Under the pieces are notes generated by a model that saw only the letters and a list, made by a program, of their open reading frames with translations, did not search any database and had not been told where the DNA came from. A stretch of DNA of 57,094 bases, filler included, from Dimargaris cristalligena (Eukaryota): the NCBI GenBank assembly GCA_003614675.1. It is 3 parts of 3 records of this genome, joined end to end, with 100 filler letters (N's around TTAATTAATTAA, not from the genome) between each part and the next. Parts side by side here need not be neighbours in the genome. Positions count along the whole stretch, not along the records: positions 19,118 to 38,076 come from ML002746.1; 2 more parts are not named here. One strand, 5' to 3'. This document shows, in pieces, positions 18,801-57,094 of the stretch (positions are counted from its first letter, which is position 1; each line of letters starts with the position of its first letter). A program made the position numbers and the translations under genes.

Positions 18801-19017
18801 TGGGCTATAAGTAAGACCAGGTACCACAAGATGGACAGGACTTCGAAAGATGGAATATAGGTTTATTAGACTAAATATCAGAAAGAGAAAACAAAAGAGG
18901 AGTTGCAAGCTAAAGAGCAAGCTGTGGGGGAATGGTTGGGGTTATATCCAAACTCGAGGGGTAGGAGAAGAATGATGATGACTAATAAATTTAAATCAGT
19001 AACTAGGTAATATGGGG

Positions 19018-19117
19018 NNNNNNNNNNNNNNNNNNNNNNNNNNNNNNNNNNNNNNNNNNNNTTAATTAATTAANNNNNNNNNNNNNNNNNNNNNNNNNNN
19101 NNNNNNNNNNNNNNNNN
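19018..19117. other. assembly gap with TTAATTAATTAA filler
   Basis: 100-bp N-run with a central all-frame-stop spacer. Confidence 0.98.
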
Positions 19118-19324
19118 TAGAAGGGAAAAAAAGAAAGGGAGAAAGCTATTATTAGCTATTCTTTGAATAGGGTCTCAGTCGGGCCAGGGGCAATGTGAAT
19201 GCAGGGATATCATCTAGTTAGGGGCAGGGGCAGGGGCTCATTCACTCATCAGGGGCGTACTTCTGATAAGTGCAAAAAATGGATTAAAAATAAAAGTAAG
19301 TAAAAAATGTGGTAAGTTCACTAC

Positions 19325-20350
19325 AATAGGCTTCTAATAGTAGGTGGGGCTTAGCCTCAGCCAAGTGGGCTGCTAGTATTAGGATAGGGTATAGTACTAA
19401 CTAATAAAGGATAGGCACTGGTGTATGCAAGTGTGTTGGCTTCGGGATCATCTAATCCACCACTAGGATTTGAAACATGGGTTGGTGTGTCCTGCTCAAG
19501 TGTAGAGCACTGGGGCATGGATGGCGGTGTACCCAAACTAGACGAAGGTGGGATACTAGGTCCAGAGGAATGAATAGGGAGGCATGATATTGAAGAGAAA
19601 GTGTCAAGTATCTTTGTATTTTGAGTGAAGAAATGAGTAAATTATTTGTTTTTATTGTTTTTATATGATAGTAATCATGAAGAAAATAGGAATTATGAAC
19701 AAAATATTGTTTTCCATTGCAGGAAGAGGGCTCCCCAAAAAGAGGTCATAAATCGGTCATTATAAATAGTTCAAGATGTCATTAATGGGTTCAAATATTG
19801 CCATAATATCATCACAACACATAGCTATTATCATGAATATAAAATAACAAATTGGGAGTTGACTTCCCAAAAGGCATGGAATATTTCTTATGAAATTTTT
19901 CATATCAATTGTAATCATTAGTATTTGATAAGAAAAATAGTCATAAGTATTGTAATATCTTAATAATCATCAAATCCATATAAGCATCAGCAGATATATT
20001 GATAGCTGGATACTGAAGGCTGTTGGCCAATATTCTCACAGTACTACATAAGGATCATGCAGTAGGCACACTTACTAGTTAGTATGAAGGGGTGAGAATA
20101 TAGTATTAATTGAAATAAACTGGGGGGCCTAAAATAAGCTATCCTCTAACTAGTCCCAGTGGGGCTAGCTATATATATGCAGGGGACTACTCTAAAGAGA
20201 GGTCCCTGAAGGAAGATACTAAGACTACTAAGAGATAACTAGCTAACCAGATTGTGTAGGGTCATGGAAGACTTAGCTGGGAGCTGGAAGAGTTGTTAGA
20301 TCAGCCCAGAAGTGAATAATGGGACTCCACAGTCTAGGAAGGAGAAGGGG
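19325..20350 (-). mobile_element. family A inverted copy split by ~610 bp of unrelated AT-rich DNA
   Basis: 19325-19430 matches 18436-18545; the match resumes at ~20045 (cataaggatcatgcagtaggcaca) and continues collinear with 18540-18800. Confidence 0.6.
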
Positions 20351-22371
20351 AAATGGGTAGTTTGCAAGACTGACCTACCCTATACTGAACCATTGCCTTT
20401 AGTCAATAGAGGTGGAGTTCTTCTAAAAGGGGATGTTAATACCACAGCACCAGGCAACCCCAGATATGACCAAGGTACCAATACAACCAGAGCTCTGATT
20501 ATGGCACTAAATAGGAACACACTGACCTTAGATGATACAACTGAAGACTCCTCTACAAGGGCACCAAGTGTTGCTTGCCATACCATTATTATTCCAAGTT
20601 GTATCCAAATGAGGTCCCTAAATACTCTGATATAAAAGGAGCAACTGGCTCGTCCTTGCATAGGCCCTTAGTTGACTATAGCTCCTACCCACTCATTTGC
20701 TCTATAGCTGCTTAAACCCGTTATCCTGCTTCTAAATAATACTTATTGTTAATAAATTACTTTTTATTATTATATTAAATGCTTACCTATATTTGCACTT
20801 AACAGGGACACTGTCTCCTTATCATCTCCACTTTCTGACTAATTACATTAATTTGTTAAATTAATATTCGTCCTATCATTTTAACCACTTAAGATACCCC
20901 CTGCCAAATATACTATTCAATATCAATCATCTAGAGATACCTACCATCATGTTGTTGGAATACTAAGGATGTAAAGGAAATAAAACCGGAAGTAAGGGAA
21001 GAAAGCAGCTAGGGGACAGTAGGTGCCTCTAGGTAGTTAGTTTTATTGAACTGTATTTTCAATGGGGTGAAATATAAGTGGCTAACATAAATAATCACAT
21101 GATAGCAGAATAAACTAACATAATTGGATGAAATAGGATAGGATAAAAAACATGTAGGAGCATTTTTTAACACATATAGCTGTTTTCTTCGATTTTACTC
21201 AGCTTTATTGATACCTCTTTAGTATTTCCAATAATATAAACTGCGGACGAGCCGACCTTGCCAAGTCGGACAGGTGATATATCAAAAGGCATTATAAAGG
21301 CATTTTATTCAAATATACAGAAGTATTGTCGGCAGCTTGGGTGTTTCTTTTTTTATTCCTCCGGGATGAGGTGTAGCACTTGTATCGGCTTGGGCAGGAC
21401 CGGCCTCTCCCGCTGGGAAGACAAAATGGATACCACTGTACTCTGGTGAGTCGCTACTCCGAGTAAGAGCACTATGGGGTTGGTTGTCCTCCCGGTTGTG
21501 GAGGGCAGGATGTTTTTTAGTTGTAACATCATCGGAATTCTAACGGCAGGGTGTAAATTCTCATGCCGAGCCTTTCCTGTCATAATTGACATTCATTACT
21601 ATCAACTGTAACCCAAGAATGATCATCAAATGTACAGGAAACATTTTTTCTGTAAGTGGCTTGATTATTAAAGGGACATTTTCTTCGGACCAACACCCCT
21701 TCCCACTGTCCTACATTCCAATGACATCTGACTACCCATTCAGACTGACACTTTTTCTCATTTCCTAAATTCCATTCCAGCGTATCCACATAGTACTTAT
21801 TCTACTATATCACATTTGACAACGCTCAAATTGCCGTTGGCCATCTTTTGAGTCAATCAGGATTTGTTAAGTCCCCAAGCCCATATTTTACCCTGCGCGT
21901 ATTAGTAGTGATATCGATTATTATTGTATATGCTGCGATGAAGTGCCGCAGCGCTACCCAAAATCGCAATAGCAAGTCATTACTTTCCAAATAAACACAA
22001 CAAATGTGTACCTATGCGAACGGTGATTTTATTGTAGGGTGATGGCCGAAATTGCCTCCGGTAGAATTGTAGAGGTACTATTGAGTGGCGAGAACTCTGG
22101 AAAATCTTAGTCTATATCATCGTGAGTTATCTATTAGTCGCCAAACCAATGGTGAATAAATATCCTAGAAAAAAAGGTGCATGGTTTTATGTAGCATGTC
22201 CGAGGAACACGTTTAAAATTATATATTTTCGAAGGACTTTCCCGTTGTAACATTGGGCTTATCAGCTCAACCACCACAAAGTTAAAAAACACCTACAAAA
22301 CCGGTTGAAAAAATGATTACGGCTAGCTAGTGATAGTTAAACAATGTTATCTAAAATGTACCATTTACAAT

Positions 22372-22517
22372 ATATATGGGTGAAGTTCAGCTTGGCTGTA
22401 TAAGGTTTTAACTGATATGTGTGAGAAAATCAGTGGGATGTCAATTTTCAACCAGTAGTATTTGCCTCATCAAATGGATTTTTCGTTATACAGCCTTGTT
22501 GAACTATTCCCATATAT
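22372..22517. repeat. MITE/foldback-like palindrome with 32-bp imperfect inverted arms
   Basis: 22372-22403 (atatatgggtgaagttcagcttggctgtataa) versus 22486-22517 (ttatacagccttgttgaactattcccatatat): 26/32 complementary, TA-rich ends. Confidence 0.7.
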
Positions 22518-23420
22518 ATAAATTTCTCACAAAAAATAAATTCTATAGCTAAAGTGAATAAACGGGATATGCAGGGGAGAAGTGCAGGAGGCTTTAAAAT
22601 GGAAAGGTATGGGTCGATTTTTCACATTCCTATTCTAGCAATTATTTTCCGTTGTGCGAGCCCTGAAACGATCTACCCAAGTTAGATGTAGATCGAGTAA
22701 TGGATGCCGATACGCGATAGAGCACTGCTGTATAAAATAATAGTGGTGAGCAGTTTAATTCATCGTATTTCCTTACGCTGGTGAAATTATTATTAAACAA
22801 CAGCCCGATTCCCAAGGCTAGAGGCATCACAATTACATCTCCACCAACTGCATAGCATACTGTCCCAGCCATCCATCAGAAATCAGTAAATATTTATTAG
22901 GTATAGCCAAAAACAATCGGTAGAATAGCGCACCCTAAAAAAATATGTAAATAAGTACAGCCCCCAAGTCCCTGTAAATAACCAAAGGCACTCTATCGGC
23001 AGATTGTGCAGAAGGAAATTGATAAGAATGTCCGATATATATTCTTTCAAAGGTTGGGTTACGAATTGTCCTGATTGGAGCGACGGTGAGATGCCTGGCG
23101 ACCATTCAATTGTAAATTCTATATAGAGCAACCCTTACCAAAAAACTACATACCGCTAGACCAACAATCTTAATAATACCGTACCAAACAATTCAGGGGA
23201 ACCGGTTAAATATAAATCAACTTCAAAAGCCCACGGCTCTATGGAGTCTAAGTATTTACGATGGAATTACTTAAAACAGTACCATCAACTAACCACTCTA
23301 CCCCAATCCTCCGGTTAAACTAGTATTACTTGCCATTTGTCCATATAATATCATTTAATTATTTACTGCGTTCACTCATTAAATTCACAGACTCATCGAA
23401 CCTTTCTTCATTTATTCACA

Positions 23421-26400
23421 ATGTCCGGCCCCGCTTCAGTTGGTTCCTCCAACGACTTCCTGTTTCCCGTGGTTCCTAAAAATTTCCAGCCAACTTTTGA
23501 CCTGCCGCTCGGTAAGCCCCCCATCATTAATTCGGGGTATTCAGCTCGGGCATTTGATATACACTTTCCCTATTCGCAAGGCTTCGACAAATGTGTATTT
23601 GAACAGACAGTTCAACTGGCTACTGCCATTCTTCTGGGACGATATTACCGCCAGCCAGCCATTGCCTTTGCCCACTGGCATACGAAAATCAGACCCAGCG
23701 AGCCTTTCGAACGGCTAGACGAGCGACCCAAATTGATTCTGGCTCAGGTGAATCCCAGCGCCCCACTATCCACCTCCATTTTACAATACCGCGAGAATGG
23801 CGACCCTCCTGCCCCATCCGGCATGGTTGCTGAGGTAATCCTTCACACTCGTACGGGCGGAACTACTAAGAGGCATACCCCGCCTGAATTAGGTCCAAAT
23901 ACTGGCCAGCCCAAGGCGGCCGAGGCGGATCCACGTGACACTGAACTATTGGTCCAAAGCACCGCGCGCCTAGTGATCAGTTGTACGCTTAGCCAGGGAT
24001 ACGTCCAGATAAAGGCGACCTACGCTAAAGCCTCATATCGTGATTCTGCCGTGGGCGAGTTTGTCGGCCAGCTAGGCACTGTATTTTCTGCGGTTGTTCA
24101 GGTATTGGAAGAAGGCCTGTCCACTCTCATTCGAGATATCCCGTGGGTTAGTGAACAAGAGCGAGCCCGCGTCCTAAACTATTCCCGCATGGCCGCGCCG
24201 TTCCAGGGGGACAGTCGGCCCATCCATCTTATATTCAGTGACTGTGCTCGGCGCTTTCCCGACCATCTTGCCCTGGTCGACGGCCCTGAGGAATGGACTT
24301 ACGCCCAACTAGACTATGCCAGCTCCGAACTGGCCCGGGTTCTAGTAGATCAATCCGGGGCTAGCCCTGAAGTTCGGTTCGCACTCCTTATTCCCAAAAC
24401 TATCGCTTATACAATGGCTATTTTAGCCGTGCTTAAGTCCGGTGCTGCCTATGTTCCCCTTGACCCCGAATACCCCGTTGATCGAATCCAGTTTGTATTG
24501 GAGGATAGTGGCGTGACCCTTTTAATCGTTGCTGAATCTGTTCTTGGCAATGTACCAGGCCAGCAAGGGATACCGACACTGGTCGTGGATTCGTATATCC
24601 AACAACCGGCCCCTGCGGCACCGTCGGATTTCCGGTCATTTCCTTCGTCTCCCAGCGATCTTGCCTACATTATCTACACCTCAGGTACCACTGGTCGACC
24701 CAAGGGGGTCTTGATCGAACACCGGGGCGTGGCGAACTTTGCCACCGATCCCTACTTGCGCGAAGAGTACGGCCCGGGGCACCGGGTCTATCAGGCGGCA
24801 TCCGTCGCCTTTGACGGCATTCTTGTGAATACATTTCGCACGCTTTGCGCTGGGGGTACACTTGTCATCCCCACCGACAACTTACTCGAAGACTTGCGAA
24901 ACGTTCATGTGGGAGCCATTATAACCTCATTTCTATCTCGGCTGGACCCTACGAGTTTTCCCAACTTGAAGACAATTGCAATTGGAGGAGAGCCCCTTCT
25001 ACCCGAACAACAGGCTCGCTGGACACCCCACTGTGTCATAGCCAACCATTACGGCCCAACAGAAGTAACGGTTTATAGCAACCTGGCTGCAATCGGGCCC
25101 GATGACGATGTCACCATTGGTAGGCCAATCGACAATGTATACAATCTGGTGGTCGACGATGAACTTCAGCTAGTGCCTGTCGGGGCACCTGGCGAACTAC
25201 TAATTGGTGGTGTGGGGGTTGCTCGGGGCTACCAGAACTTACCAGCGCTAACCGCCAATACATTTATTTCCAACCCACATGGGGAGGGTCGGGTATACCG
25301 TACCGGGGACTACGTCCGATGGCTTTCAAACGGAACCGTCGAATTTATCGGTCGTATTGACAACCAAATCAAACTGCGCGGGTACCGGATCGAAATCGAA
25401 GAGATTGAGAATACCGCATGCCAGTTCCCGGGACTGAAACAGTGTGTGGCGGTTGTGGTTCAGGAAACGTTGGTTCTCTACGCTAGCCCTGCGAACCTCA
25501 ACCCAACTAGTCTATTGGATTTTTTAAGAAGCCGGCTATCCAAGCAAATGGTGCCTGAACTAGTAGTGCCGATAGAAGACTTTACTGCCGCATCGTCGGG
25601 CAAGCTGGATCGCAGATCTCTACCTTCAATTAGCCACTTGCTATCGAAGAACTCGCTGTCATCTTCTGATCGGGATAATATCAATGTGCCACATTCTGAG
25701 ATTGAGGAGGACCTTCGGCAGATATGGGGCCAGATTCTACAGCAAGACCCTGATCGCATCAGCACCACCGACCACTTTTTCCGAATCGGCGGTGACTCCA
25801 TCTCGGCCATTTTACTAGTATCCAAGGGGCAGCAGATTGGGTATAAACTGTCCGTGCCGCTAATCTACCAGTACCCCGAGCTCCGACAGCTTGCCCAAAA
25901 CATCGAAAAAGTCGCTAACCACCAAGCCAATGGCCACTCTGCTTATCAAGCTCAGATTCAGGGTGAAGTAGTATTGGCCCCGATCCAGTGCTGGTTCAGT
26001 GCCACGGGTCTTTTAAACCCCCACCACTTCAATCAATCGTTTACGTTGAATATCAATCCCAGGGCTACCTTATCATTAGCAGCCATTTCCGATGCCCTTG
26101 TGGCCCTGGCCAACCACCACGACACTCTCCGGGCCCGATTCCAGCCTAACGAAGCCAATCAGTCGTGGGTCCAGACTATCCCTACAGTCACCGCCGACCC
26201 CACCGACTTTTTCTTGGTGGAAGAGACGGTTTCATCCGAAGACTATGCTGACTTTATTCTACGGGTGCAGTCCAGCCTTCATCTCACTACGGGACCTGTG
26301 CTGGCAGCGGCCCTGATTCATGATCCGGTGAGTACGTCCCGGTCCCGCCTATTTGTCACCATCCACCATATATTAGTGGACCTGATTGCCTGGCGTATTC

Positions 26401-29400
26401 TGATTGAGGACTTGAATACCCTATTTCGAGGCGACCCTCTTCCACCAAAGACATTGCCCTTCCAAAGCTGGACATCCCAGCTGGGTGAATATGCAGCAAC
26501 TCTTTCGGCCGATATCTGGCCCACCCAGGTGGACTCTAAAAGGACAATTCCGGACATTCGGGCACTCCTTCCCCCTCCGGGACTAGATGGCCCCTGTATC
26601 CAGGCAGCCCGCCTCTCCACTTTCTCTAAATTTGATTCTGAATCCACCCAGGCATTGCTATTCCAGCTAGCCCCGCAACTGCGTGTCACTCCACACGATC
26701 TTCTTCTTGCCACCTTCACCCACGCCTTTGCCACTACCATTGGGTTAGACCAGGTGACTTTTTGCATGGAAGGACACGGTCGGGAGCCGTGGTTAGCAGA
26801 CCAGGACATTACCCGCACAGTCGGCTGGTTTACTGCTCTGTATCCTCTTGTTCTTCGAGTTGAACCCGATCAGTCCTTACTGGACCTATTGCGCCATACC
26901 AAGGAATCCCTACAGGAAATCCCAATGAAGGGATTCCCCTACTCCGTATTAAAACACATGCCCGGAGTTCCAGCGGAGGAGCGAGCCAAGCTACAGGCCA
27001 AGACTCCGGACCGGTTAGATGTCCAATTCAACTATTTTGGGCGCTTCAACCATTCCGGTGGTGACCTCAGCGATGATATTTTATCCATCGAATGGTCGGA
27101 CTACTTCGGCCTACACGACTTTGCTCCCCAGGAAAAGGTCGTCTATGACATTAACCCCATGCCCACCGTCGTTGGCGATTGTTTACGTCTAGTTATGGAG
27201 TACAATCCACTGGTCTATTACCGAACAATTGTCGATAAAATTATGGGTAAATGGCGCGAGAATCTTGTTCAGCTCGCCGGTGTTATCAACCAGCCGCAGT
27301 TCATTGGTATAGAGCCTCTTCTGACGCGACATGATTTTGCCCACCTTCAGCTCTCTGACTCCGAATTCCAGGAGACTGTTGCCGAACTCCGCCACCGTCG
27401 CATTCCATTGGCTGAGGTGGAGGCCCTGCTACCCTGCATTGCGCTCCAGGGCGGTCTGCTAACCGGACTGTCAACCGACAAAACCGCCTATTTGGTGCAG
27501 GTTGCCTTCAAAGTAAATGGACCGCTAAATATCGATCGATTGCTTAAGGCCTGGCAGGAGGTTTCCCAGCAGCATACCTCCCTGCGCACCGTGTTTCTTG
27601 AGTCGTCGTCGAAACACTCCCGGGGATTTATCCAGGCCGTCCTTGGGTCGTGTTCCACAGTCTGGACTATTTCCGACCAGCCCCTAGCGTCGCTAGAGGA
27701 ATTCTTGACCCAAAACCGCCAGCGAGGGTTTACACTGCAGGAGCATATGATCCGCAACTTTGTGTTCCCTACCGCGGATAGTCAGGTGCACGATGTCATT
27801 GTGACCTTCCACCATTCTCTGTGCGATGGCTGGTCGCTGTCCCTACTACTGCACGCGTGGGCGGAAGCTTACCACTACCCCAATCAGACTGTATCGAATC
27901 CAGCAGCCACTTTTACTTCTATCGTTCACCATGTCGGCCAACTCCATTCGGAATCCGCCCAAGTCTTCTGGGGTGAATTTTTACAGGGCGCCCTTACTAC
28001 TCCTGCACCTTTAATCCTCCTTGACCACGCCGGTGTATCTGATTGGGCCGAATACGTAACCCAGATTGATATTTCTAAAGCTGAACTAACGCGTTGTTCA
28101 CAGGCACGAAATGTGACGGTGGCCACTCTACTACGGGCGGCCTATGCTCTAGTTCTGGGGCGCCTGCTTGATCAGGACGATGTAGTATTTGGCGTGACCC
28201 TGTCTGGACGGAATCTAAGTGTGTCGGGGATAGACCGGACCATTGGCCCCTGCACAAACACACTACCATTCCGCGTACGCTTAGACCGTTCCTCCATCTT
28301 TACCTGGCTGCAAACCCTCCACCTGGACCTGGTGGCTATGATCCCGTTCGAACATTCAGTGCTAACTGACATTATCCGTTGGACCTCAACCGGCCAAACT
28401 GGACCACTGTTCCAAACGCTTCTGGGGATGGAGAACTTCCCAGACCTCGTAGCCGACCCTACGCACGACTTTACCCTGTCCGACATGCGAATCCACGAAT
28501 TCACGGAATATCCCTTAGCCGTTAATTACATTGACAGTCCTCATGTAATCAAAGCTAAGGTATTCTACAACACGTCCAACTATTCCGAGGCAGCTATAAG
28601 CCAAATAATTGGCATGCTTCAGACCATTCTAGGGCAGATTCTATCAGCGGATACCAATACAACTGTGGACCAACTGTCGCTCGTAACCCCACTGTCGAAT
28701 CGCCAAATTACCATTGTGGCAGATCGGGGCAACACAACGGCCACTGTTCAGCCCCTATCGCTTGTTCAAGTTTGGGATACTATACTAAGCGACCATACCG
28801 ACCTCCAGGCGTACATTTCAGAAGTGTACAGTCTGTCGTACGGCCAGGTTGATATGTTGGCTGATATCCTTGCATTTCAATCAGGGCAAACTCTTGGGAC
28901 ACCCAGCGCATCCATAGTCGCCCTTGTGGGCAGTGCCGAAGATTTACTCGTTTGTTTGGTGAGCGCAATCAAGATGGGTGCTCATCTCACCCTTTTGGCA
29001 GCTCCCTGCACTCTTACCCAACTGATGCTGTGCATCGAATCGACAGCGAGTCAGGTTGTATGGCTACCATCTACGAAAACCGATGATATTCAATCGCTTC
29101 TGAATGGGATTGCGGAACTCATTACTATACCGAATGCAATTGATGAGCACGTTAACGAAAGGCTCTTACTTTGTCAATTCAATCCCAGTTACGATCTCCA
29201 GGACCTCAGTTTGACGTTCATTTCCCAAAAGAATTCGGACGACCCGGCATGGTTCACGGTGAATAGCCAGGGTATCCAGCGAACCCTTGCCTCCACCCAG
29301 TCTTACATTTCTGAGATTGACCATTTTATTATTGACCATTCTTTGGCACTCGCTACCCCCCAGGCTGCCTGGCTCATCCTCTCGTGCCTATTTTCGCATA

Positions 29401-32400
29401 AAACGATTATCACGTCCGACTCTTCCCTAGGCGAAAATACCAAATCATCTACGTATCATGTTGTGGATGTAAATTGTAAATGTGATGGCTCACTTAAAGG
29501 TCGCACAATGGTTCTTTGCGACCTAGCCCAAGCTCGCTGGCCCGAATCCACCAATCTGATCAAGCCCACTGATATATGCATATCATTTTTTGATACCGTC
29601 TTCCACGGTCACCAACGTGCCACTATGGAGCAGTTGGTATCCCGGTCTTTTCTGTCGGTGGATAAGGCCCCAATGAACTATTCCCTGGACGTCGTGGATG
29701 GCCAAGGACATACTTGCCCCACCGGAGTCGTTGGCCACCTTGCATTTTCCGATACTCTGGGCGCCAACAAATTTAGTCCAACACACCACTCGGTTCTTGG
29801 CTATCAAGGTAATACCGGCCTCGTGCACATGCTAGGTCCCGCCTCCCAGAGAGCAGTTGCTAAAGGTCAACAAGTTCACCTTGGTCTACTGAACCAGACG
29901 CTAGTTGAGGCAAGTGCCCTTTCCCCAAGGAGTTTGATACTTCCCGATGGTCAACTGGTCGCTTTGGTAGCAGGTGGTTCTGACGAGGATCTATCCCGAT
30001 TAGAAGAGGACATGGCCCCACCCGTTATTCCACTGGCTCTAGTGCCACATGCCATTATATCGACCCAGGTTTTCCCCCACGTGACCGATCTCGCTGAGCA
30101 TCTTCTGCTTCCCTTTGCGCAGGCTTATCTTACCGCCCTGCCACTGCGCTACTCCAAATCAATGTCGGAAACAGAATGGTGGCTCACTGTAGCGGTGAAT
30201 GAGCTGAATAGTTCATTAACGCACTCTACTGACTATTCCGCTGCCCCTCTTCCCCGGACTTCAGGCAATGCTACACTGGCCCAGTTGGAACTGCTCCAAT
30301 ATCGCATTCACTCTAAATTCGGTGTCGCCATGCCCCTGGGTGACCTGATTAAACACGCCGATCTCCGAGTGCTATCTTCTGTTATTACGGAGAGAATGAA
30401 TGGGGGCCCATCTAGGCGCTCAGGTGAATCCAGCGTCGGAGTGACTGACGTTAGCCTACCATCGCATTCGCTTCTCCGCTGTCAGACTCGGCCGACTACC
30501 CACCGCCAGCAACAAATATGGTCTCTCAGTCGGATTAGCAATTCCGTTAACGACTTTTATCACCAATGTGTGATCACCTCCAAAACCCCACTCCAACTGG
30601 CAAACGTCCAGCGGGCTGTCGACCATTTAACCGCCTCATTTGGGTCTCTTCGGTACCAGTTTACTCCTGTCCGGGGTGTACTGACTTGTCATGTTTTACC
30701 TCGTGTGCGAACTGAAATTAATGAAACCCAGTTGTCCATATCCCAGCCACTGGCCGTCGATGAGCTATTTTCACAGGATACCCGATTCAACCTTGGGCGA
30801 GGGGTCCTCGTTCAGGTGGAACTGTATCATTTTACCAAACCTATTGATAGTGATGCAAGGTCGGCCGTGTGCTTTCGAGTTCATGACCTTGCCGCGGATA
30901 GCCTTCTCTTTAATAGCATGGCCAACCATTTGGCTATGGGATTATACGAAATTAGCCCAATCAGCTATAACCCATCGTTGACCGAGTTCCACTCAGATTG
31001 CTATTTTAATAATGAAACTAATAGCAATTATTGGAGAACCCTTCTCTCTGAACCCCCCTCCCAGCTAAATCTGCCTCTGGATCACCCCCGTCCCCTTCTC
31101 CCCAATTTCCAGTCCGCCTCAGTCGGCCTTGGAATTGACGCTGATCTGGTGTTGTCCCTTTCCAAATTTATAAAAACGGATTCATTCACTCGGGGTGATA
31201 TTTGGCTGGCACTCTTTGCCTCATTTCTAAAGCGATTGACGGGCCAGGATGATATCATCGTCGAATGCAGCGGTTTGGAAGGCCCTTCCTGTGACCAACC
31301 AGTCGGAACTACTCAACTACCCGCTGCCCCTATTCCCATCCGCTGTTCTGGTAACTGGCCAACCCGTATCTCTCATTTGGCTGAACACATTTGCCATCAG
31401 CGTCGCCAGTCTATGAGCTATCCAACCCCATCAATTGAGTTTTATTCCTCACTGGTGAATGACCCGGGCCATGTCCGACTAGCAGGTCTGGCTCAGGCTC
31501 GGGTTTCCATTTTTCCAGATTCCCATGACCAACTTGGCTACAGTAGTGCCCAGGTGGTCTATCCCAATACATCCCGATCGCTATTCACGTATGACTTGGA
31601 GCTGATTATCCGAGAGACGGCTTCCGTGTCGCATTGCAATATTCGCTATAATCCGGATATAATAGAAGATTCAATGGCCAAGCGCTTATTACACAACTTC
31701 CTCCACTATGCCCAGGCCTGTTTACACCCCGAACAGGCGTGGTCCGATGCTTCCATGGTATCTTCCGATGAGTCCCGCATCTTACTCGAGAACTATGCCT
31801 TTGGTGGCCTATCATCTGTCATACCGACCGAGGAGCCGCCTGCGAGTATTTTATGCCAATTCAACCGGACGGTGGGCCTCTTTCCCGATTGTCCTGCCGC
31901 CGAGGTATCCGGACAAGTATGGACTTACATGTATTTCATGGATCGTATTCAGTTAGTGGCTGCAGGGCTGCGCAATGCTCTGATTCAGCCGGGAGATAAA
32001 ATCGGTGTTATTGTCGCCAATCATCCGGACACAGTGGTCGGAATTCTGGCGACTTGGACCGTCGGGGCAGTCTACGTTCCAGTGGATTGTAAACTGCCTG
32101 TTAAACGTCAGAAGTATGTCATCGAGGCGGCTAACTGCAGGCTCGTTCTAAACACCACAACCATGCCCACTCAGTTTCCTGGTACTTTGGTCCTTCCTGA
32201 ACTACTAGTGGGCAATGGCGATTCTCATGGCCAGTTTGACGTATACCATAGTCACCCCGACGACCTGGCATACGTTATATTCACTTCGGGGTCGACGGGT
32301 CTACCCAAAGGTGTTATGGTCACCCATAGCAATCTCAATTACCAGATTAGCAATCCAATCTTCCAAGAGCTACGAGTGGCAGAACAGCGGGTCATGGTGG

Positions 32401-35400
32401 GGACTGCACCTGGGTTCGACGTATTTATCCTGAATTCCCTCCTTCCTTTGTGTACCGGGTCGACGCTGGTGTTCTATGGGGACAGTTTGGCTGAAACTCT
32501 GCGCTACGTTGACCAAACCTGGCTAGTGCCGTCAGTCATCAACCGGCTCGACCCTTTGGACTATCCCAACCTCAAGGCCTTGTGCCTAGCGGGTGAGCCC
32601 CTCAGCCGCGAGCTAGTTGACAAATGGTCGGCTGTTCCCGCCATCTATAACGGCTATGGGCCAACCGAGACCACTATCATTAGCCACTTTACCCGAGTCT
32701 CTCCCACTGGCGCCATCCCCATTGGCCCACCGATTCCTAATTACGAGTGCTATATTCTCGATAATCGGCTGCAGCTAGTACCCATCGGGGCAATTGGCGA
32801 AATTTGTATTGGTGGTGTTGGTGTTGGCCGTGGATACATTAACCGACCTGACCTTAATCCCGCCGTATTTATCGATAACCCCTTCACTGGCCAAGGTAAA
32901 CTCTACCGCACCGGTGACCTGGGTCGCTGGTTAACCAACGGCCAGGTCGAATGTCTAGGGCGCATGGACAGCCAGGTTAAACTCCGGGGATTCCGTATCG
33001 AGTTGGACGAGATCCGTAGTGTCTTGATGCGCCAGCCCGGAGTCCAGGACTGCGTCGTTTTTGTCCATGACCAATTCTTAGTCAGCTATGTCTTCCCTGA
33101 ATCCGCCGCCAATATTGATAAGCTTCACATTATTGTTGCCGATCATTTACCGTCTTATATGATACCCAGCTACTTCGTGGGTCTACCCACCGTTCCCCTC
33201 ACCGCCAATGGCAAGTGCGATACCAAATTATTGCTTAGTCATTTCACCCAATATTTGGCCACCCAGCGGAAGCGGGTACCGCTATCTGATTTTGCATTAG
33301 ACTCGGCCAGTCAGGCAGTAGGGGCCCTGACCCAAGCACTAATTGATGTACTTGGTCTAGCCCCCGACCAGATTAATCTACTGCCTTCATTTGTTAAACT
33401 TGGTGGTGACTCTATTTCGGCTATTCAGGCTTCGTCGAAATGTCGTCAGCTCGGATTTACCCTACCCACCGCGACTCTATTGGGATCAAAGTCTCTATGT
33501 GCTCTAATTGGCAGTATGGAAGCCATTGATTCTTCTGCCCACCAGAAAAACTTACCCAAAATAATTAAATACCACACCACCTTCCCGCTGACCCCTGTTC
33601 AGCGGTGGTTCTTTGACCATCCCTGGCGCAACCCCAATCACTTCAACCAGTCGTTTGCCCTCGAATTGACCCGGCCATTGTCTGCTACTCAGATCGAGTC
33701 TGCCCTTCTCCGCCTGGTCAACCACCACGACATATTGCGCTGTCAGTTTACCCAGGACGTGGCTAATTCACCCAGTCGGTGGTCTCAGTGTATATTGCCG
33801 CCATTTTCCAGTTTACCTATTCCCGTGGTGGAAGCCACTGTCCCTCTGCCCGACTGCCCTGGCCAGTTCACATCGATCCAGTCCTCGCTTGATATCTTCC
33901 AGGGGCATCACCTGGCTGCAGGTCTTATTACCGTCTTGGAACCCGTCGGCTCATTTGCTGATAGTGAACCTAATACCACAGCTGTATCTCAGACATCTCC
34001 ACGGCAGTTGTTATTCTTAACGATTCACCACCTGGTAGTGGATTTGGTATCTTGGTCAATTCTGTTGGGGGATTTGGCCCGACTTCTGGATGGCCAATTG
34101 CCAGTGCCACAGCATCTCTCGTTTGCAACCTGGGCAACAGAGTCGGCTGAATGGGCTAAACAAACTACCACTATGTTTGAACAGCCATTGTCTTCAATAC
34201 CACCGCCATCGTTTTTACCCCTTACTAGTCCTGATAACTTGGAATTCAATACCCGGGGTAATTCAGAATATATGTCGATCACCTTGGATAAAATCCACTC
34301 GGATGCCTTGGTGGGAGTTGATATCACTCTTATCCAGCCTCTGGAACTGATGCTAGCTGGCCTATTCCAGGCCCTCTACTCTTTAACACAGGCCTCGACC
34401 ATTATTGTTTTTAATGAATCCTATGGCCGCCATTCTTGGGATAGTAGACTTGGCCCCAGTCGATCAGTGGGTTGGTTTACCCCTCTTGTACCCTACCTGT
34501 CCCAGGCCAGCCCTGATACATCAACTCTGGATTTCATTAAACTGGCCAAACAGGCCCTCCGATCGTCGCATGTTACCGACGGGCCACCGTATGGCTTACA
34601 GAAAATGGTAAACTGCCCTGGACCTGCAACTTCCACTGGTCGACCCTATGTACCGATTGATGTCGTATTCAATTACCAGGAGCATACGGTACAGCATGGC
34701 ATGCTGATCCAGGAGGGCTGTGCCCCTTGGTCGGTTTGCCCCGAACTGACATCAAACCTAGCCGTCTGCCACTCCGAAGAACTCCGCGCACAATTATTAG
34801 AAATTACTGGCTTACCAACCTCTAATGGTTTAATATTCGCGGTCCATTACTGTCCGCAGGTCATATCGACGGGTGTTATTGAGTCTCTTTTGCATAACTT
34901 CGAGGACTCCCTTGTCAGTATGGTAGAGTTCCTCTGCCAAGCCCCTTTCCCGAGTTTGTGGACACCGACTGATTTCCCTAACTTGAAAGCCACCCTACCT
35001 GAATTAGCAAAGCTCGAGTCCGAACTTCCCACAGTGGGACTTTCCCCTATCGATGTCGAAGACCTTTATCCTATGCTACCTATGCAACAGGGCATGTGGA
35101 CGGCCACCGCCAAGGATCCTTCCGAATACATTATTCAATTGGCCTTCACCGTGGCGGGTGTTTCGGATTTAGACCAAATTTATGCTGCGACCAGGACTTT
35201 GGTTGCGGACCATGCCATTTTGCGCACAACGTTTTTGACTACGTGGAGTAATCCGTACTGTGATGGTGTCCAGATTATAACCCGGGCCCCACGTTTCGAT
35301 TGGCATGTCCTTCGCGAGTGGTCTGATGTGGGCGCCGATAGTGAAGACGACTTCCTAGCGGCAGATCAGATGCGAGGATTTACACCAGATGAGCCGCTAC

Positions 35401-38076
35401 TCCGAGTATACGTCAAACAGTTGTCATCCAGTTCGATACGCTACCTGTTGACCATTCACCACGCCCTGACAGACGGCTGGTCAATGGGTCTTCTCATTCA
35501 ACAGCTCCGGATTCGCCTGCAAAAAGAAGCTCCGATTCAAGCTGTGGTCGTACCATTATTCCGCCATTATGTTAGCTATTATTTGCAGTCATACACCCCC
35601 GAAGCCGAGTCATTCTGGCGTAGTTACCTTCAAGGAGTTGAGCAGCCCACTGAGTTGGAACTTCCCCAGCCCTTGGATAAGCCTGAATCGCGGGGTATGA
35701 CCGAATTTCACTTCACCTTGTTCTCTGATTATGATAGGATTCAGCGAGTTGCTAGGCATTTGGGATGCACTCCCTATATCCTTATTAAGGCCTCGTGGGC
35801 TATCCTACTGAGCCGCTACACTGACCACACCGATGTTATATTTGGTAACACTGTGACTGGTCGAGCACTTCCCTTGGCCAATGTCGATTCTCTTGTGGGG
35901 TGCCTTATTAACACTGTTCCCTTCCGAGTCCGATTTGATTCTAATATGCCCGTGTTAGAGCTGGTCTCATCGATCAACGCCACCTCCCAACAGATAGTCT
36001 TGTTTGAGCACCACCATGTTGCAAAGATTAATGAATGGGTGGATGGCGATGTCCGTCCCAGCGATATGTTCAATACTCTAGTGGTATATGAGAACTACCC
36101 TGATCCCGGACTAGGAAATTTAAATCATTCGGTGACTTTTACAGACGCCAAGTCAGCCGGGTCCACTGACTATCCCTTGACTGTTATTGCAAGAGTGGAA
36201 CACGATGAAATTACTGCACTATTGAGCTGGGATTCGTCCCAGATTGGCCAATACTACGTAGAGTCCTTGGCTCAGCATCTCTGTACCTTATTTGATGGGC
36301 TGGTTTGCGCCCTTACCGATTTGGAAAAACATACTCTTGTTCAGGATCTCCCGATGCTATCCGCTGATGAGACAACAATAGTCACTAAGCAGTTCGCCTG
36401 TCCGACTCTGGCTGTTGATTTCGATGCATGTGTGCCGGACTTGTTTACTCGTTTGGCTCAGAGCAGACCCAATGTAATTGCCGTCGAATGTGAGGATAAA
36501 AAGTGGACCTATGAGTATTTACACCACCAGTCACTTAGTCTCGCCCAGCGGCTGCTTGACCGAGGGATCCCGCGTGAGACACCCATTGGCCTGCTCATTG
36601 ACCGGATACCCAGTACAATTGCAGCCTTCATGGGCCTACAGTTGTCAGGGGCTGTTTTGGTTCCCTTGGACCCCACTTTTCCCATTGAGCGAATCCAGTT
36701 TATCATAGAAGACTGTGGCATTGGCCTGGTTCTTACCAATATGGCGGACCAGTCCAAGCTCTCTGCTATTCGCGTAGCCCTCAGCCAAGTCGAAATCCAA
36801 CCAATCGACCCTTGGCTTATGCCCCTCCAACTGCCTCAAGACCAGTTGCCTATCCTCCCGCACTTAAGCTCCTCCGACCTTTCCTATATAATATACACTT
36901 CGGGAACCACGGGTCGGCCCAAGGGCGTTCAAATCGAACATCGCCTGATGGGCAACTTTGTCCAACAGTTGGAGTCAACATTTGGTATATGCACCGGCCA
37001 GCGCCTAATGCAGAATATGGCCCTAACCTTTGACGCTGCACTGCTCGAAATATTTACCGGCCTATGCAAGGGGGCCACCCTTGTTCTTCGGACCGATCTG
37101 TTGGATACACTGCCCAAAGTGGATGCTATATTCGCCACCCCTACTGTACTGGCATCCGTTGATCCGGCGCAATACCCTAAACTTCAAACGGTCATCTCCG
37201 GCGGAGAGGCCCTTCCTCGAAAAGTGGCCGAACGCTGGGCCCGGTATTGTCGAGTGTTCAATATATACGGGCCCACGGAGGTTCTGGCATCACATGCCGT
37301 TGAGTACAGCCTTGGTGATACTTTGACTATAGGCCGCCCAATCCCCAATACCCAGGGTTATATCCTCGATCACTTCTTGCGCCCTGTTCCAATCGGAGTA
37401 CGTGGTGAAATCTACGTGGGTGGTGCGCAGGTCTCGCGGGGTTATGTCAACCTGCCCGAACTCAATAAGGAAAGATTAATCACCAACCCTTTTACCGGAG
37501 AAGGCAATATATATCGTACGGGGGACTCTGCCCGCTGGCTACTAAATGGCACCGTTGAGTACTTTTCTCGCCATGACGATCAGGTAAAAATCCGCGGTCA
37601 TCGAATTGAGCTCAAGGAAATTGAATCTGTATTACTCAGCCATCCGGATGTGCAGAGAGCCGCTGTGGTCATTATCAGTCGAAGTATCTATGCCTTCGTC
37701 TGCCCTGCCCCTGTTTCCATCGAGTCCGTCAAGTTGCACATTGGTCGGATTCTGCCGGCCTATATGAACCCCAATACCATCTGTAATATTGACGAGTTGC
37801 CCCGCAATACCAACGGCAAGACCGACAAACATGCCTTAATCGCCCGAATCGCAGAGTTGGCCGCAATGGATACTGGTCGTGCTATTACTGCCCCGCGGAA
37901 TCCAGTGCAGGCCCTAGTCGTGGAGGCCCTCAGCCAGGCGTTGGATACTCCCTGTGACCAGATTGACATTTATGATTCCTTTTTCCAACTCGGTGGCGAC
38001 TCGATTTCTGCCATTCGCTTTTCCTCCCTCTGCCGAGACCGTGGTCTACATATTTCAATCGCCCAGGTGTTCAAGT
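23421..38076 (+). CDS. multimodular NRPS, intronless, 3'-truncated by gap: C(half)-A1-T1-E1-C2-A2*-T2*-C3*-A3-T3-E3-C4-A4-T4 (* degenerate)
   Basis: Single ORF >4880 aa. A-domain cores YTSGTTGRPKG/FTSGSTGLPKG (~24674, ~32280, ~36894) with YGPTE and YRTGD. T motifs GGDSI (~25788, ~33402, ~37992). E domains HHILVD..EGHGRE..RTVGWFT (~26364) and HHLVVD..ESYGRH..RSVGWFT (~34026). C domains HHSLCDG (~27810) and HHALTDG (~35457). Confidence 0.97.
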
Positions 38077-38176
38077 NNNNNNNNNNNNNNNNNNNNNNNN
38101 NNNNNNNNNNNNNNNNNNNNTTAATTAATTAANNNNNNNNNNNNNNNNNNNNNNNNNNNNNNNNNNNNNNNNNNNN
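38077..38176. other. assembly gap with TTAATTAATTAA filler; supplies the artificial NRPS stop
   Basis: N-run identical in design to the first gap. Confidence 0.98.
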
Positions 38177-38500
38177 TACTTGCCTCATCAAATGGATTTT
38201 TCGTTATACAGCCTTGTTGAACTACTCCCATATGGTTTTACGATATCTGTTTGGGATAACAAGTAGAATATAGGTGAGATTCGGCCTTGCTATAAAGTGA
38301 AAAATCCGTTTGGCGAGACCAGTATTACTGGTTAGACCCTGACATCCCACCCATATAGGTTATACACCCTATTTAAAATCATATACCACTTAGCTGATTT
38401 TTCACCCATGTTCATTTTTGACCAGTAATATGTGCGTTTCTTCCAAAGGATTTTTCGTTAAGCGGCCCATTTGAACTTCTGCCATTCTTACACCCCTTCC
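38177..38500. repeat. array of direct and inverted copies of the ~80-bp unit also found at 22430-22517
   Basis: 38177-38233 matches 22459-22515 at 55/57 nt. ~38270-38355 is an inverted diverged copy and ~38415-38485 a direct diverged copy. Confidence 0.8.
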
Positions 38501-39385
38501 CTGGTTTTTGGTTGGGCTAAACAGTATAATCCTCCACCATTGATTAGAAAATTAATGAAATGGCTCATAGGCACGTGACCTTTAAGCAATGCTATTTGTG
38601 GAGAAAAATACTTCCTGTCTTATTGGATATTGCCGCCCTCCCTATCATCGTCATTCTTCAGAATAAATAGCGGGTGTGGCGATCCCTGTTCCTTACGATC
38701 TCATCTTGCTGATCCTTTGTCCCCTCACTCATGGAAAGTCGTTTCCTATTTTCATCCGTGTAATTAGTAGGTACTCACTCTCATCTGTTGATGTGGATTA
38801 TTCCTCCGTTTCTCCTAGTCCATGTCTTCGATGGCCTTGACCGAGATGATGTTTTACTTGAAATTAGCTCTAGCTTAGTGTCAATAGCCTTCGGGTCCAA
38901 TTCATGCTGAGACTGTAACCCTGATCAATTCGATATAGCCGACTGGATGCCAACCTTGGATTAGCCCATGTAATTTATACTGGATGCCGTCTAACCTCCG
39001 TTTCCTCCACGTTTTTCATTGTTAAAAATTCGGCAATCTAGGCAGCTAGATGGCTAACCATCAAGTGTTCGCGGACTTGTTTCTCTCGTGTAAAATGCTA
39101 TACCATGTATAAATAAACCTTCATTTTAAATACAATTGTAATTGGATTTTGATATATTTGGAGGTAAAGTGATATAGATCACTGTTTTGTGAGTTCGGGA
39201 GCGAGTTTGAAAGGGGAAATATGGTATATTTACCTGACAGGATTCAATGGTTGTATGCTACTATGCTGCATATAGAGACGCTAAGGCGGGTATATAAAGA
39301 CGTGCTGTTGGTGGCGAATTGCTAGTTGCTTCCTCCCCCCACTATTAAATCGACTTTGCTTGTCTATCAACCGTTTTCTTGCACC

Positions 39386-42300
39386 ATGTCACACTCCCAT
39401 ACTGGCTCTGACGATTCAGAGCTCGATTATATCGAGGCTCTCTGCTTTGAAGCGAACGAGATTTCCGACCCATCTACGATTACTCAACCGATCCCTGCTG
39501 TTGGCAATTTGCCTAGCAAACCAAACTACCAACTCGTTTCAGTCTCGCCCAACCGCCGCCTACTTACCAGTGGCGCCAATTCGACTGGCCTGGTGAGATT
39601 CGGATCGAGCCCAAGCGGGTCAGTCGTCCATTCGATTGACCTAACTGGCGAAAGCGACTTTGGATCCCAGCACTTGATTTCTACGGAGTAAGTCTTGGCC
39701 GACAACCCCATACCCCGGGGTGACTAATCTGTTCTAGGTCGCGAACATCAATTCGGTGGACACAGACTCATTGATTACCCTTCATATGTAAATCTCCGCT
39801 TTCTAGATCTACAAGCTACCAAAATAATTCGGGTCTCCGTCCTGTCGAAGACATTGGTAGGAGGAAGAACCCCTGGAAGCCGTGCCTTCTTCTGTGCTTA
39901 TACAGGAAGTCGGTAGCTCTATATTTTTTGTGGTGGGCCCAAATACATACGATATTTCTCTCTAAATCCCGGCTATCAATCGCAGACTAAGCTTCCCGTA
40001 CATCTGCGCGCTTATATTTACATCGATATACTTGGTATTAATATCATGCTAGAGCCCCGGTTCAGAATTCTATTTGGGTTTCGGTACTTCAATAGCGTAC
40101 AAACGGACTGCTTCGATCAGGTAAGGATATGCTTGGCGTCCAAAATATCCAATGTATTGTGGATATAGTTAGTATTGGGTTGGATCTAAATATTCTAATC
40201 ACTGTAATAGATATATGATTTGCCTATTTATACCATGGGCTCCGTTAGTTACTTCACGGTTCCAATAACGTCGTTATTAGCGGTAAGTGGCGTGGTACTA
40301 TTGTCTGGTACGACTATAATTACATTCGCCTACAGCCATCTCATTGAACTGAGGTAACGTACATCGAACGGGTATAACATTAGTACAATGGCGTCGCCAA
40401 AGAATCCGCGTTTTCTCTATTGATCTTCAATATATGCTGAATATTTGCAATCAATTAGCCCCCACGGGTGCCGGCAAGACCTGCCTTCTCGAATTGGCCC
40501 TGATTCAATTGTTTCGGAACCCATCCCATGATTTCAAAGCCATTTATTTGGCCCCAACCAAGGTAAATAATTATTTTAACCAACAAGACAATGATCTACA
40601 GTATTTGGGCATAAAGCAAATATCAGACTTACTACAACCAGGTACCCAACTGGGGCATTGTACGATATAAGCGATACATCGATGCATAACTGCTTATCAT
40701 AGGTGCTATGTTTTGCTTTGGACATCGGATCTACAGGCCCTCTGTGCTGAACGATTTAAGGATTGGTCCAGCAAATTTGATCCATTAGGTATCTCGTGTA
40801 AGTGGGCAAATCCCACCAGTACTTCGATTTCTACAAAAACGGCGGACAACTTTTTGGGGTTGAGTACGTGATGGGCCTATATAACCACTCCATAATCCAT
40901 ACATTTTCATTTGTATGCACTATATACCACTTATTTTGATATGATATAGGCAAAGAGGCGACTGGGGATACAGATTTTACGAATCTTGGGGATATTCTTC
41001 GGGCAAGGTTAATGTAGGTTGCCACTATCGGTTTAAATTTGGTAATATAGGCAATGCATACTACTTAATAGCGAGGTTGGGGTGATATATATACAAATAT
41101 AGTCAATCTCTACGCATGGTTTCTGGTTTATATATACTTTGATTGTAACATTTATTAGAATTGCCACACCTGAAAAATGGGACGCGCTTAGTCGCCGTTG
41201 GTAAGTGCTTGGTCCATTATAGCCATATGGCTCCCCTAAAATATCCGCCTGGAGCCTGCTAAAATTACAACGATGTCCGATTCCCCATAATTTATAATTA
41301 CATAGGCGAGACAACACCAATCTTATGAAAATGATCAAATTACTATTGGTACGTGGGCCGATGCTACGGAGTTCACTTTGTCGGGCTCTTAATGAACATG
41401 GTTTTGTTGGCAGTGGGGTAGCCGGGCGTCACTATATTTTGAATGTGCTTAACTGAGCCCCGTTTAGAAACATCTTTATGATTGAGTATCCAGATCGACG
41501 AAGTCCATATGCTTCGGGAGAAACGAGGCGCCACCCTGGAGGCTGTGGTAAGTGTTGTTCCTGCGACCATTATACAAATGGATTCATCATTACATTGGCT
41601 ATCAAATTGACTGTGTATGGTCGGGCAATTTAAATAAGTTCTTTAATTACACGACGAGTCCTTAATTTCACCTCGATTAACATCATGAGAAATAGAGCCA
41701 ATATTTACCAACTTGAACAATCATTAACTCATTATAATTTAGATTAGCCGCATGCGGGTAGTGGAGCCGACCATTCGGTACCTAGCGGTATCGGCGACGG
41801 TGCCTAATATTTCCGATATAGCCGCGTGGCTGAGTTATAATTGCCCCAATGAATCCGCGACGAACGGATCAGATGCTAGCAAGCCTGCTATCATCAAAAA
41901 TTTCGGTGAAGAGTATCGTCCGGTGAAACTTGTGCGTCACGTTTACGGAGTTGAGATGCGTACAGATAACTACTTCTTATTTGAACGAAATCTCGATTAT
42001 AAGTAAGTGCTTAATTTGGGAATTCTTTGCACAGCAAGCTTTAGTACTCTTATTTATTATCCTGCTTTGAGGTTCCAACTGGTTGGGGCGCTACTGTCAA
42101 GAAAGTCGAGTAAATGAAGAAAACCATTCACCCCCGTATTTTACATTATGGAATTCGAATAGATTGCCGGAGATTGTCTCAACTCATAGCCACGGTAAAC
42201 CCACCCTAGTCGTATGTACATTAACACTTTTAAAGTTTTCATCGATATTTAATGGAAATAGCGAAAACACTGTTTGTATTTCCATGGAGGATTCTTGCCC

Positions 42301-57072: not shown

Positions 57073-57094
57073 CGACCCATAGCCCGAATCCTCC

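Follow-up and report, generated by a model that had tools for sequence, protein, structure and literature searches.

The 57,094-nucleotide window analyzed here (the whole stretch, filler included, from Dimargaris cristalligena, assembly GCA_003614675.1) carries at positions 23421 to 38076 an open reading frame (ORF) for a nonribosomal peptide synthetase (NRPS), which we take with good confidence to be the 5' two thirds of a genuine nuclear gene of a Dimargaris-type mycoparasite (Dimargaritales, Kickxellomycotina) and a member of a published lineage-specific NRPS expansion. The family may go back to an ancient bacterial transfer or to old vertical descent. With its adenylation (A) core motifs, GGxS carrier (T) domains and HHxxxDG condensation (C) domains the product is a multimodular type I NRPS. 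The frame stays open for 4885 codons, in keeping with the intron-free stretch of more than 14.6 kb that the original prediction had noted, and its start codon is an ATG at 23421, in agreement with the relative P0003 (H4R33_004493), which aligns from residue 1. Only one other ORF of at least 150 amino acids (aa) overlaps positions 22000-40000, an antisense frame of 166 aa.

The domain order is half C-A1-T1-E1-C2(DCL)-(A0-T0-C3 decayed)-A3-T3-E3-C4(DCL)-A4-T4-contig end, where E stands for epimerization and DCL for the class of C domain that follows an E domain and accepts a D-configured donor. Domains were called by Pfam searches with the whole protein and with 19 overlapping pieces, by a motif scan and by profile comparisons, and are predicted to lie as follows.

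23421..38076, plus strand: NRPS ORF, intronless, 4885 codons, 3' end cut by the contig end inside T4
23421..24182 (aa 1-254), plus strand: N-terminal remnant, C-terminal lobe of a C domain, from hhalign
24183..25655 (aa 255-745), plus strand: A1, adenylation domain, core motifs intact, from Pfam and motif scan
25683..25925 (aa 755-835), plus strand: T1, carrier domain, IGGDSI
25938..27320 (aa 840-1300), plus strand: E1, putative epimerization domain, HHILVDL, EGHGRE, RTVGWFT, FNYFG
27438..28745 (aa 1340-1775), plus strand: C2, condensation domain, putative DCL type, HHSLCDG intact
28746..30467, plus strand: decayed A domain (A0, about aa 1776-2232) and carrier remnant (T0, about aa 2233-2349), from hhalign
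30468..31805 (aa 2350-2795), plus strand: C3, degenerate C domain, Pfam 69 bits, VHDLAADS
31818..33275 (aa 2800-3285), plus strand: A3, adenylation domain, from Pfam and motifs
33303..33530 (aa 3295-3370), plus strand: T3, carrier domain, LGGDSI
33558..35000 (aa 3380-3860), plus strand: E3, putative epimerization domain, HHLVVDL, ESYGRH, RSVGWFT
35028..36350 (aa 3870-4310), plus strand: C4, condensation domain, putative DCL type, HHALTDG
36393..37880 (aa 4325-4820), plus strand: A4, adenylation domain, from Pfam and motifs
37893..38075 (aa 4825-4885), plus strand: T4, carrier domain, LGGDSI, cut by the contig end

The whole-protein Pfam search returns three AMP-binding stretches (690 bits in total), three PP-binding stretches and six Condensation stretches. 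An apparent end of the ORF at 38132 (translation table 11) was rejected as an artefact in which the run of N's after the contig is read as X and a TAA is supplied by the TTAATTAATTAA linker. In sequencing run X2 one contig (depth 52) inserts a C after 29355, in the decayed A domain; three other runs match the window at this position, and the additional base is either an assembly error or a frameshifted allele.

The A core motifs sought were TSGxTGxPKG, YGPTE, YxTGD, GRxDxQVKxRG and NGK. The regular-expression scan finds core motifs A3, A5 and A7 in all three working A domains (domains A1, A3 and A4), core motif A8 in domains A1 and A3, and core motif A10 in domain A3 only; by eye, A10 can be read in the translation as SSGKLD in A1 and as NGK in A3 and A4. 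The ten-residue specificity codes read on the alignment are DGVAAGHVYK for A1 and DVLWCAGIIK for A3, and that of A4 is DALFIGIASK, with position 331 (the last-but-one letter) read by eye from the translation. The column mapping used returns the Gln, Val and Orn codes of TycC. The D235 and K517 residues that are kept, together with mostly hydrophobic pockets, indicate on sequence grounds that A1, A3 and A4 take alpha-amino acids. Among solved structures A4 scores 425 bits against LgrA and 283 bits against GrsA, versus 136 bits against the A domain of fungal PsoA.

All 10 PDB matches of E3 are chains that bear an E domain, the best being that of TycA (94.7 bits), followed by PvdL, the GrsA E domain, TycB and bacitracin synthase 3, and E1 scores 54.9 bits against TIGR01720, under the cut-off of 74.2. 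From their motifs, the tree described below and, for E3, the solved-structure ranking, we assign E1 and E3 as epimerization domains. C2 and C4 score 89-175 bits against the solved C domains of McyB, PvdL, BacC, TycB and SrfA-C, which we take to be D-donor C domains, and at most 69 bits against TycC6, Txo and the CT domain of fungal TqaA; lying directly after E domains and grouping with other post-E C domains, both are classed as DCL type. A dual E/C reading of the C domains that follow carriers was tried and dropped, no N-terminal HH motif being seen in any Dimargaritales C domain inspected. T1, T3 and T4 all read GGDSI, with an E domain after T1 and T3; this much of the original prediction can be read directly in the translation and recurs in the motif scan, and the D-residue-rich, bacterial-style logic that it proposed is borne out by motifs, structure ranking and tree in the T(GGDSI)-E-DCL layout.

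Relatives were collected by protein searches with aa 2900-4100 and with A4 alone as queries, ranked by summed bits over proteins of 2686-8549 aa, a span that left out enzymes of the size of GliP and SirP; what follows refers to the best 120 matches listed for each query. D. cristalligena proteins rank first in both searches, and Dimargaritales make up 37 of 120 matches for the first query and 19 of 120 for A4, with D. xerosporica, D. verticillata, Tieghemiomyces and Dispira also represented. The remaining matches listed are bacterial or unnamed metagenome proteins of 29-39% identity, including Myxococcus, Brevibacillus, Paenibacillus, Streptomyces, Longimicrobium and Chitinophaga, and no non-Dimargaritales fungus (Dikarya, Mortierella, Basidiobolus) is named among the 120 + 120. 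P0004 (BJ085DRAFT_38103) is 65% identical to the window protein over aa 18-2587 and 76% over aa 2655-4798, a value that rises to 85% for A4 alone, and P0003 (7380 aa), P0002 (BJ085DRAFT_36903, 7319 aa), P0015 and P0020 are collinear with it from residue 1. The D. cristalligena paralogues share with the window gene the half C domain, the E-C pairs, the dead module described below and the collinear order, align without interruption to the intronless ORF and likewise stand alone on a short contig; the window copy differs from them in being without the last ~2,400 aa, owing to the contig end. The accessible text of Ahrendt et al. 2018 (PMC6784888) gives 27 NRPS genes for D. cristalligena, which form two lineage-specific clades, show modular synteny and mostly sit alone on short contigs, and that of Reynolds et al. 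2023 (PMC9866270) gives 25-89 NRPS and NRPS-like proteins across Dimargaritales and only 1-2 NRPS or NRPS-like clusters for other Kickxellomycotina. On its likeness to these proteins the window gene is assigned as a further orthologue or paralogue in the published expansion.

Two parts of the protein have lost their function-bearing motifs. The N-terminal ~254 aa give no Pfam or NCBIfam match, and a profile of 24 Dimargaritales N-termini aligns by hhalign with a C profile (98.6%, E 1.3e-15) over columns 208-452 of 463, with the HHxxxDG lobe absent; the stretch had from the outset been described as resembling the C-terminal lobe of a C domain only, and the profile comparison upholds this. In the Dispira relatives P0016, P0019, P0033, P0040 and P0041 the first A domain is preceded by 496-653 aa, and the same stretch is ~250 aa long in Dimargaris and Tieghemiomyces; the Dispira proteins may keep a fuller starter C domain.

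The second degenerate part is an entire module between C2 and A3. Residues 1776-2349 have no Pfam match. The A0 stretch aligns by hhalign with an A profile (98.8%, E 6.3e-17, 435 columns) and has lost every A core motif in the motif scan, and the T0 remnant, aligned with a T profile at 69% over 31 columns, is without the GGxS serine motif. In C3 the second, catalytic His of HHxxxDG is replaced, giving HD in place of HH, and the equivalents in three relatives inspected read HD, HE and HQ; the best PDB match of C3 reaches only 37 bits, and C3-type domains (n=4) form a long-branch clade of their own in the C-family tree. An X-domain-like role for C3 was considered and set aside as a remote idea only, the match to the teicoplanin X domain being just 19 bits (E 0.004). 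D. cristalligena proteins show the C2-remnant-C3-A3 layout as well, with a dead A remnant of 220 to 578 aa depending on the copy, and so do Tieghemiomyces proteins, with a remnant of ~194 aa; C3 is kept in every protein with this layout. Compared domain by domain with P0004, the working domains are 71-83% identical, the N-terminal lobe 42%, A0 54%, T0 60% and C3 54%. Because the lesion is common to many paralogues, in D. cristalligena and Tieghemiomyces alike, that are intact elsewhere, it is judged to be old and tolerated, with the A/T remnant apparently being whittled away, and the frame through the dead module is presumably held open by the working modules downstream.

The sequence missing at the 3' end can be approached both through other assemblies and through the relatives. 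Beyond 38076, public contigs continue for 6347 nt in run X1 and for 3332 nt in run X5, and a 31-nt match leads from a public contig extension back to 36896, which would fit another A domain whose P-loop is encoded by the same sequence. The equivalent of T4 in P0003 and P0002 reads GGDSI and is followed by a C domain (HHALLDA), then by A-T-E-C-A-T and a terminal E-like domain. Of the 105 GGDSI carriers in the 37 Dimargaritales proteins, 56 precede an E domain, 43 a C domain and 3 a terminal E-like domain, and 3 have nothing after them; no GGHSL carrier occurs in these 37 proteins, which come from the best 120 matches listed; all GGHSL carriers (n=207) belong to 83 non-Dimargaritales proteins, bacterial or unnamed metagenome, and they always stand before a C domain or the protein end. 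The expectation that T4, being GGDSI, would precede another E domain does not hold in the collinear P0003 and P0002, and since a C domain follows in 43/105 cases GGDSI is no predictor of E in the Dimargaritales family. The terminal domains of P0003 (6950-7380), P0002 (6888-7319) and four others make up an E-like subclade with support 0.994; they are of HHLVFDYLS type, with a GGNSL carrier before them, and thioesterase PF00975 is listed for none of the Dimargaritales matches. The terminal E-like domain may act in release or cyclization. By analogy with the relatives, the part of the window gene beyond the contig end would read C-A-T-E-C-A-T plus a terminal E-like domain, for a total of six working modules and no thioesterase.

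In the assembly line envisaged here A1, A3 and A4 would load alpha-amino acids, E1 and E3 would epimerize the T-bound residue or peptide and the DCL-type C2 and C4 would hand on the presumed D-configured donors, to give a peptide of about six residues in which positions 1 and 2 would be D-residues. Unable to load a residue, the decayed module would be bypassed. Most likely, we surmise, C2, being intact, would bridge the silent module by joining the donor on T1 to the acceptor on T3, with C3 surviving as a non-catalytic structural partner of A3.

The setting of the gene is constrained by how the window was put together. It consists of three contigs, A (1-19017), B (19118-38076) and C (38177-57094), joined by two identical N44-TTAATTAATTAA-N44 constructs, and because it is a string of joined contigs any neighbourhood argument that reaches across a linker is void. 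The gene had been described as lying inside an intron-rich scaffold; the spliced neighbours are real, yet they are found on two other contigs behind artificial linkers. Contig B contains the NRPS gene and 4.3 kb of repeat-rich non-coding DNA, and nothing else. The elements around the gene are as follows.

19018..19117, no strand: artificial linker, N44-TTAATTAATTAA-N44, between contig A and the NRPS contig
19118..23420, no strand: upstream DNA of the NRPS contig, AT-rich (36-42% GC), ORF-poor, with high-copy dispersed repeats
38077..38176, no strand: artificial linker, N44-TTAATTAATTAA-N44, after the end of the NRPS contig

The longest stop-to-stop frame in the upstream 4.3 kb is 111 aa. A repeat is common to contigs B and A (19326-19431 versus 18436-18543, 84% over 108 nt) and another to contig B and the start of contig C (22459-22515 versus 38177-38233, 96% over 57 nt); the location of contig ends in repeats is probably the cause of the assembly breaks there. 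In four public sequencing runs word depth is 15,000-98,000 at 19118-19749 and 22278-22909, and ~50-250 in the gene itself. The high-copy upstream repeats are probably transposon fragments. Word depth is likewise very high in all four runs at 20382-21645, and there are many alternative joints upstream of the NRPS at 19325-19413/20056-20066/22374.

It might be supposed that the NRPS contig, a separate contig tied to the others by artificial linkers only, with domain logic of a bacterial kind, no introns and, at 50-53%, a coding GC above that of its flanks, is a bacterial contaminant or an assembly chimera, and the original prediction had itself named read coverage and composition as the place where this would come to light. 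Against this, between 83 and 97% of sampled words are present in 5 runs that cover 4 samples and 2 studies and all bear the same organism label, and an independent contig (X4 record 19) spans 22477-23623 and so bridges the non-coding DNA and the start codon. The NRPS has a GC content of 51% and a third-position GC content of 53%, compared with 53-58% and 55-70% in the exons of contigs A and C, and its relative synonymous codon usage correlates with that of the flanking-contig exons at r = 0.75. Upstream of the gene lie 4.3 kb that are AT-rich and free of ORFs, unlike the densely packed genes of bacterial DNA, and that contain repeats common to both fungal contigs along with others at high copy in this genome. 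The nearest relatives are proteins annotated as fungal, from three genera of Dimargaritales, and the best bacterial match reaches just 39% identity. By its eukaryote-type upstream DNA, the repeats shared with contigs whose housekeeping genes are Kickxellomycotina-like and its presence in several runs the gene is judged to be encoded in the fungal nuclear genome; contamination is very unlikely, to the point where we give it next to no weight. Improbable too, if not to the same degree, is that the gene is a decaying, non-functional relic, with the dead module and half C domain as marks of a pseudogene under birth-and-death turnover. One full module and an N-terminal C domain are indeed without any catalytic motif, and the contig of one run has the 1-nt insertion at 29355, but the frame is open over 4885 codons, A1, A3, A4, T1, T3, T4, E1, E3, C2 and C4 keep their core motifs, and the same dead module and half C domain are found in many D. 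cristalligena and Tieghemiomyces paralogues in which the other domains are intact. The identities to P0004, 71-83% for working domains versus 42-60% for dead parts, form the pattern that is expected under selection on the working parts.

The question of origin was addressed with two trees. The C-family tree (FastTree, LG+gamma, midpoint root) was computed over 441 columns from 169 domains, each 330 aa or longer, which belong to 22 of 121 proteins: 14 bacterial ones, 7 from Dimargaritales and that of the window. The A-domain tree, also midpoint-rooted, comprises 73 A domains from 14 of the 121. The E clade has a support of 1.0, and its 23 Dimargaritales domains, E1 and E3 included, are monophyletic (0.998) and sister to 33 of the 34 bacterial E domains sampled, with one bacterial terminal E-like domain as a basal outlier. 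All 30 Dimargaritales C domains, among them C2 and C4, are placed with the bacterial post-E C domains in a clade of 66 (0.94), apart from the 42 domains of the bacterial post-carrier clade, which is LCL-like (the class for L-configured donors), and they are monophyletic (1.0) regardless of whether they follow E or T. The 27 Dimargaritales A domains likewise form one clade (0.999), separate from the 46 bacterial A domains sampled. Since there are no GGHSL carriers, one C clade (30) and one A clade (27), single-module ancestry is suggested: the family has the look of one that arose by duplicating a single A-T(GGDSI)-E-C(DCL) module, and in the trees it joins no particular bacterial lineage.

The gene had originally been called horizontally derived, to be checked by a phylogeny against bacterial and Dikarya NRPSs. 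The bacterial part of that comparison leaves the Dimargaritales clades outside the sampled bacteria, the trees holding no Dikarya; no bacterial donor lineage emerges for the A, E or C domains, each of which forms a single Dimargaritales clade, identities are 29-39% and codon usage is host-like, so that the claim as made is unproven. A more specific form of it, in which a Dimargaritales ancestor took up a bacterial A-T-E-C(DCL) NRPS before the split of Dimargaris, Tieghemiomyces and Dispira, with later host adaptation and duplication to 25-89 genes per genome, strikes us as quite possible while falling somewhat short of likely. The named non-Dimargaritales proteins among the 120 + 120 matches listed are all bacterial, at 29-39%, which is also near the general NRPS background, and the searches, confined to 2686-8549 aa, excluded Dikarya enzymes of GliP/SirP size. 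The solved-structure ranking of A4 favours bacterial A domains (LgrA and GrsA over PsoA) and the T(GGDSI)-E-DCL logic is of bacterial type, but no donor lineage emerges, the A clade stands apart and the E clade lies beside the bacterial E domains as their sister, not inside them. In 185,579 prokaryote genomes a pattern scan, weak evidence by virtue of being pattern-based, gave a single weak locus, in Herbidospora, at 29% identity. The distribution is patchy, other Kickxellomycotina having 1-2 clusters in the accessible text of PMC9866270, and there is precedent for transfer in Mortierella (bioRxiv 10.1101/2020.08.21.262279) and Basidiobolus (PMC7466969), as far as the accessible parts of these sources go; dual E/C domains are absent from the Dimargaritales family, however, and composition is host-like. 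The gene is intronless and the genes on the neighbouring contigs are spliced, contigs that are not linked to that of the NRPS; its relatives end E- or C-like with no thioesterase Pfam domain, a fungal and not a bacterial style of release. In the accessible text of Ahrendt et al. (PMC6784888) the D. cristalligena A domains are nearest to the clade of epipolythiodioxopiperazine (ETP) toxin synthetases, a clade that according to Bushley & Turgeon possibly predates the split of bacteria and fungi, with bacterial sequences nested inside it. An uptake of this kind does not exclude our preferred reading, a genuine nuclear member of the Dimargaritales expansion; it is compatible with that reading and adds an origin to it.

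More tentatively, and in our estimate rather doubtful, the whole Dimargaritales NRPS radiation (25-89 genes per genome) might derive from one bacterial-type A-T(GGDSI)-E-C(DCL) module acquired in one ancient transfer, independent of those in Mortierella and Basidiobolus, and have grown by internal duplication alone. Of the features typical of Mortierella and Basidiobolus, dual E/C domains are absent from the Dimargaritales C domains inspected and a terminal type I thioesterase is absent from the full-length relatives. If true, the single-module origin would explain carriers that are all of the E-partner kind and C domains that are all DCL-derived, and it would account for the retention of dead modules such as the present one, as spacers in frame within enzymes whose D-rich peptides are used against host fungi.

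Several points weigh against the reading of the gene as a working member of the expansion with the layout and product proposed. The relatives used to infer the downstream half are only 50-76% identical, and no protein of at least 90% identity, by which to fix species and exact orthology, is among the matches listed. The extra C after 29355 would break the NRPS frame in the X2 assembly. The A1, A3 and A4 codes match no specificity code known to us, and substrate assignment was dropped. It would be unusual for a C domain to act on a carrier that lies two domains further on. The trees, finally, were computed with FastTree on subsets (22/121 and 14/121 proteins), with midpoint roots and without Dikarya sequences.

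Comparison with known systems places the gene more closely. The 'bacterial-like' NRPSs MpcA and MpbA of Mortierella alpina are, in the accessible text of Wurlitzer et al. (bioRxiv 10.1101/2020.08.21.262279), also multimodular enzymes of an early-diverging fungus that install D-residues, with an N-terminally truncated starter C domain that has no HH motif and with host-like GC and codon usage; they differ from the window gene in their dual E/C domains, terminal type I thioesterase and nine introns per gene. The window gene, by contrast, has separate E and DCL domains and no introns, and its relatives end E-like without a thioesterase. Bacterial T(GGDSI)-E-DCL modules, such as those for tyrocidine (TycA/TycB), gramicidin S (GrsA), bacitracin (BacC), pyoverdine (PvdL) and microcystin (McyB), supply the best solved matches for E3, C2, C4 and A4 and have the same motif set, with the window C domains on the post-E (DCL) side of the tree. 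Unlike them, the Dimargaritales family (29-39% identical) has no GGHSL carriers, no post-T (LCL) C domains and no thioesterase, and its C domains fall in the DCL-derived clade even where a carrier immediately precedes them. Degenerate domains are retained in other working NRPSs, as in the A domains of fungal ferrichrome-type siderophore synthetases and the X domain, a dead C domain, of glycopeptide NRPSs. These resemble the present case in that a dead A or C-type domain is held in frame inside an intact assembly line; in the window gene, unlike those, it is a whole C-flanked module (A, T and the next C) that is dead between two working modules.

We know of no natural product from Dimargaritales, whose NRPS numbers are comparable to those of Aspergillus. 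The gene gives a concrete, readable architecture for this NRPS family, one of E and DCL logic, an E-like end instead of a thioesterase and a conserved dead module that is tolerated, and the dead module provides a natural test case for the bypass of an inert module by an NRPS assembly line. Two cautions follow: an intronless gene with a bacterial look is insufficient for calling horizontal transfer, and the intron-rich context in this instance arose from the artificial joining of contigs. In the accessible parts of the literature on Dimargaritales NRPSs we found nothing on E domains, a dead module or bacterial origin, nor did we find in print the conserved dead module, the all-DCL/all-GGDSI make-up or the E-like terminus.

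Contigs A and C carry spliced genes for an SPB4-type DEAD-box helicase, ATG3, isopropylmalate synthase, a Sec63-domain helicase and a pentatricopeptide repeat (PPR) protein. The SPB4-type helicase is in at least 3 ORF pieces. The isopropylmalate synthase gene on contig A (10303-11920, minus strand) has at least 2 exons; in a search over proteins of 567-2000 aa the best matches of normal length (567-700 aa) to its exon, among those listed, are Kickxellomycotina proteins of ~50% identity, six longer plant proteins (42-45% identity) score above these on summed bits, and no Dimargaris protein is among the best 120 matches listed. A small ORF on contig A (1566-1880, plus strand) has a CsbD-like match of 38.1 bits, just below the 40-bit cut-off; the CsbD-like family consists mostly of bacterial stress proteins. 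The Sec63/DEAD-domain helicase (Brr2/Mer3-like; 40353-44925, plus strand) is broken up into numerous short ORF pieces along more than 4.5 kb and is the most intron-rich gene of the window.

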